Source: Eledone cirrhosa (taxonomy: Eukaryota). Taken from it: a stretch of 64,000 nt of DNA. Of the stretch, positions 25,401 through 27,826 are shown one piece after another (the stretch's first letter is position 1; each line of letters starts with the position of its first letter). The stretch is from NCBI GenBank assembly GCA_964016885.1, contig OZ024741.1, positions 8,370,001-8,434,000 of the forward strand. Reading direction: 5' to 3'. Under the pieces are notes generated by a model that was given only the letters and a program-made list of their open reading frames with translations, was not told the origin of the DNA and ran no database searches. Both the position numbers and the translations under genes were made by a program.

Positions 25401-26075
25401 ACATACAGAATAGCTGGGTGCTCACAGTAAAGCAACCAGTGAAAGACTTGTTACATATACATAGGTATACGTGTGTGTATTCATATACACACTAGTATTT
25501 CAGTATGCATATGTAGATGTAATTTTTTAACTTAATTGTTTAAGCGTCAGTCATACAAAAGTGAGTTACAAACGAAACGAAATTTAATTTCGTTTCGTTA
25601 TTTGTTTTTATCGTCTCCGCTGAACCGGTGCGTACTCACACTCTATGCAAATTAGTCTGCCCACTACTAATTTTCATAGAAAAAGCATATAACGATATGT
25701 GCTTTTACAATTCTCCAGAAGGGCCGGTAGATAGGTAAATATTGCTGATGAGTTGTAACAACAACGAAACTAGTTCAATATTCCTTGTCTGGCTTTCTGG
25801 AGAATAGAGGGAAGGTGTTCCCTCAAAAACCAGTATGACTCTAAAAACCGGTTTGTCTGTGTGTTTACATACAGAATAGCTGGGTGCTCACAGTAAAGCA
25901 ACCAGTGAAAGACTTGTTACATATACATAGGTATACGTGTGTGTATTCATATACACACTAGTATTTCAGTATGCATATGTAGATGTAATTTTTTAACTTA
26001 ATTGTTTAAGCGTCAGTCATACAAAAGTGAGTTACAAACGAAACGAAATTTAATTTCGTTTCGTTATTTGTTTTT
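25401..26075 (+). mobile_element. 466-bp head-to-tail retrozyme-like unit (about 1.45 copies) with an intact hammerhead
   Basis: ACATACAGAATAGC at 25401 and 25867, about 210 bp of perfect redundancy, hammerhead at 25738-25782. Confidence 0.8.
25738..25782 (+). ncRNA. Intact minimal type I hammerhead ribozyme
   Basis: AAUAUUG-CUGAUGA-GUUGU-AACA-ACAAC-GAA-ACUAGU-U/CAAUAUU: 7-bp stem I, 5-bp stem II, palindromic stem III. Confidence 0.9.
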
Positions 26076-26120
26076 ATATATATATATATATATATATATA
26101 TATATATATATATATATATA

Positions 26121-26260
26121 CGATATTAACAAATGGAAACTATATTTATAAAACCATATTTATTTCATTATACATATTTCAAGGACACCAAGTTAAATTA
26201 TGGTATGCCTTCATGAAATAAATATGGTTTTATAAATATAGTTTCCATTTGTTAATATCG
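26121..26260. repeat. 48-bp-arm inverted repeat enclosing a truncated hammerhead
   Basis: Arms at 26121-26168 and 26213-26260. Confidence 0.85.
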
Positions 26261-26406
26261 TATATCTACTCCAAATACATGTCGAGTGCTTTATATCAGT
26301 TATAAAAATATTTACTTGTTGTATCCCAACAATTTAAATAGAACTTTTGCTTATATATATATATATATATATATATATTTATATATCTATATATCCATAT
26401 ATATAT

Positions 26407-26735
26407 AAATAAAATAAAATAACAGGAGGCTGGACTGGTGTCAATCCTTGAAAGGTTTATTATACTATGATCATTTCAATGACCGGGTTCCATATGAATC
26501 CTGTGATATCATCAGCTATTCGAAATATAACAAAGGAATATCGTAAAAACCATGGGTCCGAAAAATCAGAAGTCCAGCCTCCTGTTATTTTATTTATAAT
26601 TAAATCCGTATTCGCACCACCAACTACACAAACGAAGACGGGTGAACTGCACTACTTTGAGTACTCTCCACAATATTACACCAAGATTGACCATACGGAA
26701 TGACCAATTCTATCAAGGGGTGAACCAACAAACCT
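26407..26735. mobile_element. Penelope pLTR-like fold-back fragment; related copy at 47740-47965
   Basis: AATAACAGGAGGCTGGACT in both orientations; decayed CUGAUGA...GAACCCGGUC on the minus strand. Confidence 0.55.
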
Positions 26736-26987
26736 AAAGATATATATATATAATGATTTTTGAAGCGATGAAATACCAATGAAGGTTGGAAAATCACTGA
26801 TGAAGGACTATTTTTATCATATGTAACCCATGTGTAACCACGCCGTATTCATTCTTCTCATGTTTATATATATACGTATATATATATATATATATATATA
26901 TATATATATATATATATATATATATATATATATATATATATATATATATATATATATATATATATATATATATATATATATATATAT

Positions 26988-27826
26988 AAACAATTAAGTT
27001 AAAAATGTACATCCACATATGTATACTGAAATACTAGTATGCATATGAATACACACACGTGTACATATGTAGATGTACCGAGTTTTTCACTGGACACTTT
27101 ACTGTGAGTGTTCAGCTAGTCTGTATGTAAACACACAGACAAACCGGTTTTTAGAGTCATACTGGTTTTCGAGGAAACACCTTTCCTCTATTCTCCAGAA
27201 AGCCAGACAGGAACATTGGACTAGTTTCGATGTTGTTACATCTCATCAGCAATATTTACCTATCCTCCGGCCTTTCTAGAGAATCGTAAAAGCACATATC
27301 GTTATATGCTTTTTCTATGAAAATTAGTAGCGGGCAGACTAATTTGCATAGAGCGTGAGTACGTACCGGTTCAGCGGAGACGATAAAAACAAATAACGAA
27401 ACGAAATTAAATTTCGTTTCGTTTGTAACTCACTTTTGTATGACTGACGCTTAAACAATTAAGTTAAAAATGTACATCCACATATGTATACTGAAATACT
27501 AGTATGCATATGAATACACACACGTGTACATATGTAGATGTACCGAGTTTCTGGAGAATAGAGGAAAGGTGTTTCCTCGAAAACCAGTATGACTCTAAAA
27601 ACCGGTTTGTCTGTGTGTTTACATACAGACTAGCTGAACACTCACAGTAAAGTGTCCAGTGAAAAACTCGGTACATCTACATATGTACACGTGTGTGTAT
27701 TCATATGCATACTAGTATTTCAGTATACATATGTGGATGTACATTTTTAACTTAATTGTTTAAGCGTCAGTCATACAAAAGTGAGTTACAAACGAAACGA
27801 AATTTAATTTCGTTTCGTTATTTGTT
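26988..27826 (-). mobile_element. Second insertion of the 466-bp family: about 1.2 units on minus plus an inverted partial unit (27548-27826) on plus
   Basis: CAATTAAGTTAAAAATG at 26991 and 27456 (465-bp period); hammerhead at 27212-27256. Confidence 0.8.
27212..27256 (-). ncRNA. Intact minimal type I hammerhead ribozyme (GUC site)
   Basis: AAUAUUG-CUGAUGA-GAUGU-AACA-ACAUC-GAA-ACUAGU-C/CAAUGUU. Confidence 0.9.

Follow-up and report, generated by a model that had tools for sequence, protein, structure and literature searches.

Non-LTR retrozymes of metazoans have been described as dispersed, tandem and non-coding units of 150–450 bp that are present in thousands of copies, with one type I hammerhead ribozyme per unit, a weak palindromic helix III and a strongly self-paired predicted circle, and co-occurring Penelope-type elements (PLEs) have been proposed as their partners (Cervera and de la Peña 2020, PMC7229834). 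In the parts of that study cited here, circles were shown for coral, mussel and axolotl retrozymes and were proposed as templates. The class is further marked by self-cleavage that works better in dimers, by linear as well as circular monomer RNAs, by target-site duplications of more than 4 bp where these are present, and by the lack of a PBS and a PPT. Animal retrozymes, in families of 51–972 bp, have since been proposed to be non-autonomous PLE derivatives on the evidence of co-occurrence and homology to pseudo-LTRs (pLTRs), with unequal crossover favoured for their local expansion (Li et al. 2026, 10.64898/2026.07.22.740005). Both the element class and the PLE hypothesis are, with these two reports, already in print. 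PLEs themselves start reverse transcription at two adjacent internal sites, the spacing of which defines the 'tail' (Frangieh 2024, PMC11167929), and the passages cited here describe insertions with a tail at one end, an inverted 5′ copy and a preference for (TA)n (Craig 2021, PMC8557442; Arkhipova 2013, PMC3846280). Hammerhead repeats are also known from newt satellite 2 and schistosomes, in which the upstream unit contains the promoter (an snRNA-type one with Pol II in the newt and one with Pol III in schistosomes) and single copies cannot propagate (PMC2220036, PMC6765202).

Here we characterize a 466-bp family found in a 64,000-nucleotide stretch of Eledone cirrhosa DNA (the window). We read it, with moderate confidence, as a non-coding 466-bp non-LTR retrozyme for which an RNA circle of unit length was the likely template and a PLE RT-endonuclease the likely agent of insertion. 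With metazoan retrozymes the family has in common dispersed tandem non-coding units in thousands of copies, a single type I hammerhead per unit with a weak palindromic helix III, a strongly self-paired predicted circle and co-occurring PLEs; its unit is slightly longer than those of PMC7229834 and its cleavage and circles are predicted, and, unlike in the cited part of that study, insertion ends, tails, inversions and a candidate promoter are mapped here. As in the proposal of Li et al., a PLE origin of mobility is at issue, although our evidence is an insertion signature, with no pLTR homology found, and single insertions contain long uniform arrays that extend over the two arms, where that study, as far as cited, favours local expansion by unequal crossover. 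The features in common with PLE insertions (PMC11167929, PMC8557442, PMC3846280) are two internal starts, a one-end tail, 5′ truncation, a head-to-head inverted copy, AT-rich or (TA)n targets and a predicted protein dimer; in contrast to the PLEs described in those passages, the unit has no ORF, its tail is 69–74 nt long rather than 30–40 nt and its arms can be many units long. As in the newt and schistosome repeats, a promoter (a candidate here) lies inside the upstream unit, but the putative motif matches a host U6/U6atac element, not one of U1/U2.

Two insertions lie in the window, and unit positions (q) are numbered such that q1 is window position 25612 and q466 is 26077. Copy 1 (25401–26077, plus strand; 677 bp) is a 5′-truncated insertion of 1.45 units that reads q256–466 and then q1–466. 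Its first 211 bp recur at a 466-bp period with 100% identity, and it terminates at a position designated site A, running into a (TA)n target tract to its right (26075–26120). A neighbour outside the retrozyme family, the 3′ end of the ORF-bearing PLE family F202 (24898–25361, plus strand), terminates at the short end of F202, within the TA tract to the left of copy 1. Copy 2, which has a unit period of 465 bp and lies between (TA)n target tracts at 26865–26988 and 27827–27852, is a single head-to-head inverted insertion composed of a 562-bp minus arm (26987–27550; 1.2 units), which ends at a second position, site B, and a 284-bp plus arm (27548–27831; q183–466), which ends at site A and is without a hammerhead; both ends run into (TA)n. 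The two arms show 0 differences over 272 shared columns, and the subfamily of copy 2 differs from that of copy 1 (86–94% identical by piece). A preliminary description of this DNA had reported two insertions of head-to-tail units with a 465–466-bp period and no credible ORF. The number of insertions and the period hold, and a unit dimer contains no ATG ORF longer than 19–20 amino acids; the second insertion, previously placed mainly on the minus strand, is now seen to be one inverted insertion with a minus and a plus arm. No tRNA gene was found in the region, and three window ORFs with an RVT_1 match but no GIY-YIG (28590–29765, 31709–32530 and 52464–54833) were set aside as LINE-like. Each window copy holds one hammerhead, so neither alone can release a unit-length RNA, and under a dimer model both would likely be dead ends.

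Searches of the 3.0-Gb genome, which carries U1, U2, U6 and U6atac genes, showed that this is a real, young and abundant non-LTR retrozyme family. An exact-pattern search returned 9,506 intact hammerhead cores (control, 0), copies are dispersed over many contigs, subfamilies are 84–100% identical to copy 1 and arrays reach about 30 units. A sister family of approximately 422 bp, whose tail hairpin gave 10,887 matches, has the hammerhead, the tail hairpin, the q23–52 block and the two-end pattern in common with the 466-bp family. Searching with a pattern for further hammerheads with ACUAGU yielded 1,688 matches (control, 20); those listed were mostly from the sister family, and no PLE coding match was found near six odd ones. 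Contigs of four sequencing runs cover the unit and unit–unit joins, as tandem DNA would equally give; two of these four runs have other organism labels and low depth.

The hammerheads of copy 1 (25727–25792, plus strand; type I with extended stem I, core at 25745–25775) and copy 2 (27197–27267, minus strand) matched the Rfam model Hammerhead_HH9 with 38.6 bits (E = 1.7 × 10−7) and 30.6 bits (E = 6.5 × 10−5), respectively, both below the gathering score of 52. Cleavage is predicted after q164, at 25775/25776 following GUU in copy 1, and at 27219/27218 in copy 2, which has a GUC triplet. These triplets and the palindromic stem III (ACUAGU) read in both window copies as originally claimed, and the cut in copy 1 is predicted in the same place as before. 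GUU, the weaker cleavage triplet compared with GUC, is present in 51/78 insertions. Stem I has 7 bp and is continued beyond an internal loop, stem II has 5 bp with a 4-nt loop, and stem III consists of one pair and a palindromic tetraloop or, in a dimer, of a 6-bp duplex (−4.8 kcal/mol). The min-HHR of PLEs, as characterized in the cited part of Cervera 2014 (PMC4209133), has a helix I of 4–5 bp, a loop 1 that is ill-defined and a helix II of 7–8 bp; the retrozyme hammerhead, judged by its predicted stems, fits the canonical type I and not the min-HHR of PLE pLTRs. The perfect minimal hammerhead of the preliminary description is thus intact in each copy, but canonical rather than minimal by its stem lengths. 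Stem II reads GUUGU/ACAAC in one window copy and GAUGU/ACAUC (the A-U form, copy 2) in the other, a double change that had been interpreted as compensatory. The swap is concordant in 78/78 insertions (48 U-A, 30 A-U), and is one pair inherited along subfamilies rather than broad covariation.

Conservation of the core across genomic copies, on which the preliminary description had made its reading depend, was observed. Inherited changes, defined as those common to two or more insertions, affect 0/16 core columns compared with 77/311 columns elsewhere (Fisher P = 0.016) in a sample of 78 insertions that includes 15 loci chosen for their similarity to copy 1; single-unit changes do fall in the core. 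This pattern points to selection on the ribozyme core among propagating lineages. The predicted fold of the 466-nt circle (−150.7 kcal/mol, 67% paired; z = −10.5 relative to 60 dinucleotide shuffles) leaves the hammerhead core open.

The 3′ ends of insertions are fixed at site A (q463–466) or site B (q391–398), and only the 5′ ends vary. The A–B spacing, the tail, is 69–74 nt; in copy 1 it spans 26003–26077 (plus strand), from site B (26003–26008, q392–397) to site A (26075–26077, q464–466), and includes a predicted 13-bp hairpin (about 26036–26063). The 3′ ends are almost always joined to (TA)n, with 1,956 exact A/(TA)n junctions genome-wide (control, 0) and 621 exact (TA)n junctions for one B variant (control, 0), and loci chosen purely by similarity likewise end in TA. 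Given that the ends lie inside (TA)n, target-site duplications are unreadable. End types were tallied for 87 insertions, which are the first 88 exact-match A junctions listed on contig C1 minus one duplicate. Inverted arms end at B in 57 of these, form short B stubs in 11 (called by a short motif, such that a few may be chance) and end at A in none; in the remainder, the inverted arm stops at another position in 4 and continues past the retrieved DNA in 1, 13 have only a direct arm and 1 is ambiguous. An A arm is accordingly paired with a B arm in 68/73 inverted insertions and with a second A arm in 0/73. Thirty B-anchored loci gave the mirror picture of this tally, and among 100 listed B junctions there were two candidate B+B pairs, one of which was real (L362). 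Apparent 5′ ends at q1–6 were taken as a BLAST boundary effect for q447–466. A different start register for each insertion had been proposed, together with a genome-wide tabulation of registers; in the insertions tallied here, the 5′ ends do vary, but the 3′ ends fall at sites A and B, and circular permutation as such was rejected in favour of two fixed 3′ sites with variable 5′ truncation. The A+B pairing is the PLE 'tail' rule. Taken together, the two fixed 3′ ends, of which each arm has one, the (TA)n targets, the 5′ truncation and the inversion support the mobilization by a Penelope-type RT that had been suggested for this DNA, and the retrozyme was very probably moved by PLE machinery.

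The ORF-bearing PLE families of this genome encode an RT with a C-terminal GIY-YIG, and a Cys motif before the GIY-YIG, compared by eye with passages of Craig 2021, suggests that they may belong to the Neptune or Nematis clade. Their two ends lie about 35–70 nt apart, a range in which the retrozyme tail occupies the upper end, and their inverted copies pair a long with a short end (5/5 resolved pairs in F202, 5/5 in F208 and 2/2 in F221). All of the end features of the retrozyme are PLE features, as would be expected if the units were truncated pLTR ends of an unsampled autonomous PLE and the tandem units stacked pLTRs. This reading also gains from a comparison in Xenopus, in which 24/57 retrozyme families match known elements, nearly all of them PLE termini (cited part of 10.64898/2026.07.22.740005), and from the size of the PLE sample here, which comprises 7 families and 50 loci of about 10,600 GIY-YIG candidates. 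Within that sample no sequence homology between the unit and autonomous PLEs was found, and two apparent matches proved to be the sister retrozyme family. Moreover, arrays of 10–30 pure units occur without coding sequence, and the autonomous families have different hammerheads and are without the U6-type motif described below. The possibility that units are always attached to a PLE ORF, raised in the preliminary description, was checked at the 87 insertions, where the PLE coding matches nearby come from other families and, in the cases inspected, terminate in 3′ ends of their own. We consider it very improbable that the units are such truncated pLTR ends. Satellite-like spread at the DNA level through unequal crossover and fold-back repair, with the hammerhead as a relic, would agree with the block duplications and mosaics seen within some arrays, but dispersed copies, (TA)n-joined fixed ends in thousands, A+B pairing and core conservation are all unexpected on that account, to which we give almost no weight.

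One autonomous family, F208, is joined without a TA spacer to 2/87 insertions. In L373, a retrozyme A arm is accompanied by an inverted arm made of 37 nt of retrozyme and 2.5 kb of F208; the F208 piece ends at the F208 short end, the A+B rule is kept, and the insertion could be a mixed-template event. The F208 piece in L103 ends at the F208 long end and looks like a later F208 insertion with a target deletion, so that joins of this kind can also arise by a second route. As a partner PLE, F208 is a weak candidate only.

The permuted insertions had been attributed to reverse transcription of a circular RNA. Permutation reduces to fixed 3′ ends and 5′ truncation, for which a linear multimer is a rival template, but other observations favour the circle. 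The arms of one insertion are on average 0.75% apart compared with a median of 4.8% to other insertions (53 insertions, each with 100 or more shared columns), and in 38/53 no other sampled arm is closer than the partner arm; arm identity could be aided by gene conversion in the palindrome. The predicted ribozyme cut is crossed by 70/87 A arms and crossed twice by 35 (counts that precede the re-orientation of one row), with a median A arm of 591 nt. No pile-up of 5′ ends was found at the cut (6/145, 4.0 expected) or at the predicted transcription start (11/145, 9.6 expected), so that the RT did not reach a template end at either position. In one insertion, which is three substitutions from its nearest sampled relative, the 18 full units of the two arms are all identical (0 differences), and another has 21 units with two variable columns. 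Haplotype sharing between arms, read-through of the cut without pile-up and the 18 identical units thus favour a circular template. Fully identical multi-unit arrays make up 5/45, and in 16/45 an array is no more uniform internally than it is close to another insertion; arrays also grow after insertion, as seen in an 8-unit block repeat (I130) and in mosaics (I131 and I104). Array length alone is for these two reasons no proof of rolling. Jumping of monomers at the cut site was considered and rejected, as the variants of mosaic arrays show, by eye, no obvious break at q164.

The same family and PLE machinery could instead work from an uncleaved linear multimer or from successive linear RNAs joined by template switching, in which case the hammerhead would act at another step and circles would be a by-product or absent. 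Uncleaved RNA is the main in vitro substrate of the anole Poseidon protein and ribozyme cleavage is dispensable for insertion in vitro (Frangieh 2024, PMC11167929, in the parts cited), and cleavage was seen in 1/9 tested Xenopus dimers (cited part of Li 2026, 10.64898/2026.07.22.740005). In the present family many transcripts would escape cleavage owing to the weak stem III and the frequency of GUU, and multimers could come from the arrays of about 30 units. On later passes the 5′ ends fall inside the tail in 23/53 long A arms and 15/40 long B arms compared with 20–26% expected, an excess that fits a return to the occupied start region on a circle or blocks by protein or hairpin on a multimer, and stalling in the tail suits a protein bound to each unit equally well. 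What speaks against the linear template is that there is no run-off pile-up at the start or the cut (though most arms are short), that several long arrays have uniform, private haplotypes over both arms and that the core is conserved among propagating lineages. We regard a linear template as a possibility to be taken seriously but unlikely, and a circle as probably the main template.

A candidate promoter lies at q33–50 (25644–25661, plus strand, in copy 1; 27333–27350, minus strand, in copy 2, as read from the sequence). Three U6 loci and the best U6atac locus of the host carry the motif at −77 to −79 and a TATA box at −30; the motif is absent at that position from two lower-scoring U6 copies, and the upstream regions of the 13 U1/U2 loci read have other motifs in its place. 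The retrozyme motif has a 14-nt exact match to one U6 gene (0/100,000 shuffles), gave 0 matches in 482 kb of background, is intact in 66/78 insertions and is retained in the diverged sister family. It doubles as the 5′ arm of a predicted RNA hairpin, and inherited changes occur in 6/18 of its columns, no fewer than in the background. The distance from the motif to a TATA-like box is 44 nt in the 466-bp family and 43 nt in the sister family compared with 47–49 nt in four host genes; the box is thus 4–5 nt too close, which counts against promoter function. T runs are found at q378 (T6; T3–T7 by subfamily), q460 (T5), and q60 and q92 (T4), with none between q96 and q377, and the T5–T6 runs in the unit would stop Pol III. 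The start would be near q110, just before the hammerhead, and on this prediction a copy has to exceed one unit in length to restore the promoter. One U6 upstream region resembles the 5′ side of the hammerhead over 32 nt, a similarity that we attribute to chance. That the motif works as a promoter is close to an even call, leaning slightly against.

In the pathway that we propose, an array of at least two units would be transcribed, possibly from the U6-type motif of the upstream unit with a start near q110. The palindromic ACUAGU would bring two hammerheads together for cleavage after q164, and the 466-nt monomer would be closed by a host ligase. A PLE protein, presumed from the observed end pattern, would then cut both strands of a TA tract, after which one strand would prime reverse transcription at A and the other at B, 69–74 nt upstream, from start sites that lie 230–300 nt from the ribozyme cut. 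On a circular template both cDNAs would cross the cleavage junction for any length, which is the pattern seen; they would stall more often on re-entering the tail and then be joined head to head. Some arrays subsequently lengthen in place by block duplication, as observed in the genome. A more specific version is tentative and, in our estimate, rather doubtful: a PLE dimer would grip one circle at two sites, both TA strands would roll simultaneously and the U6-type promoter would have been captured. Such simultaneous rolling could generate palindromes as long as about 10 kb at one stroke, with the promoter rebuilt only beyond one turn, and this consequence is as doubtful as the version from which it follows.

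Neither tail mapping nor a U6-type motif in a retrozyme was found in the literature searched, although repeat databases and supplements may hold the family; the available part of PMC13282606 makes no mention of a ribozyme. For the re-entry of animal retrozymes into the genome, PLE partners have so far been argued from co-occurrence and homology only. The 466-bp family adds insertion-level PLE evidence, exact start sites, evidence that bears on a circular template and a candidate U6-type promoter, and thousands of its copies carry the PLE signature of tail and inversion. With exact RT start sites and candidate long-ORF partner proteins in the same genome, both the choice between circle and multimer and the use of one strand per site can be tested directly with the in vitro PLE system already published. 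If simultaneous rolling is true, it would be the first insertion-level mechanism for animal retrozymes, and the tail and inversion of PLEs would be explained as one strand per start site.

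The 466-bp retrozyme has a sister family, represented by loci L222-L251, L322-L350, L212 and L213, whose units are about 420–510 bp long and which, by motif count, is at least as numerous as the main family. The base of stem II is mismatched in its hammerhead, and its copies have two ends spaced about 56 nt apart. The U6-type motif of the main family (the upstream element of host U6/U6atac genes) is also present in the sister family. Host snRNA genes are arranged as long tandem arrays; the Pol III-transcribed genes (L252-L254 and L352) have one upstream motif in common, at about −78, whereas in the U1 and U2 genes (L282-L312) the common element is another short motif, located at about −56 and accompanied by a TATA-like box.

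Several Penelope-like element (PLE) families of the same genome carry long ORFs encoding RT and GIY-YIG domains (L202:4309-7122, L204:1775-5062, L205, L208 and L375), and about 10,600 GIY-YIG candidates were found across the genome. The hammerheads of two families, F202 and F183, are U3-A8 variants with the stem III ACCGGU. LINE-like RT fragments lie within the window at 28590-29765 (plus strand), 31040-32530 (minus strand) and 52464-54833 (minus strand; RT followed by a PHD finger).

At locus L373 (G000:C1:41489647-41493420), a retrozyme arm ending at the fixed 3′ site A is joined head-to-head with a 5′-truncated F208 PLE that stops at its own short end; an inverted stretch of retrozyme, 37 nt long, separates the two pieces. 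This chimera could have originated through a mixed-template insertion or through a later insertion and deletion. The 5′ junction of copy 1 contains short filler (window 25381-25400; similar cases at L091 and L099) that, on the opposite strand, resembles the TA-joined end of another repeat. Partner arms made of foreign stubs may be common. Between copies 1 and 2, an inverted insertion of another hammerhead-bearing family, F4 (window 26421-26750), has ends with an apparent spacing of about 135 nt, far exceeding the usual PLE tail. At L265 (G000:C10, about 48072650-48072900), the two end sequences of the hammerhead-bearing PLE-type family F3 enclose a U6 copy, with (TA)n on the flanks; this is likely to be U6 RNA taken up by the PLE machinery.

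Long retrozyme arrays of about 31 units (G000:C1:5738087-5752751) and at least 29 units (C1:95942339 onward) both contain higher-order block repeats, showing satellite-like expansion out of single insertions.
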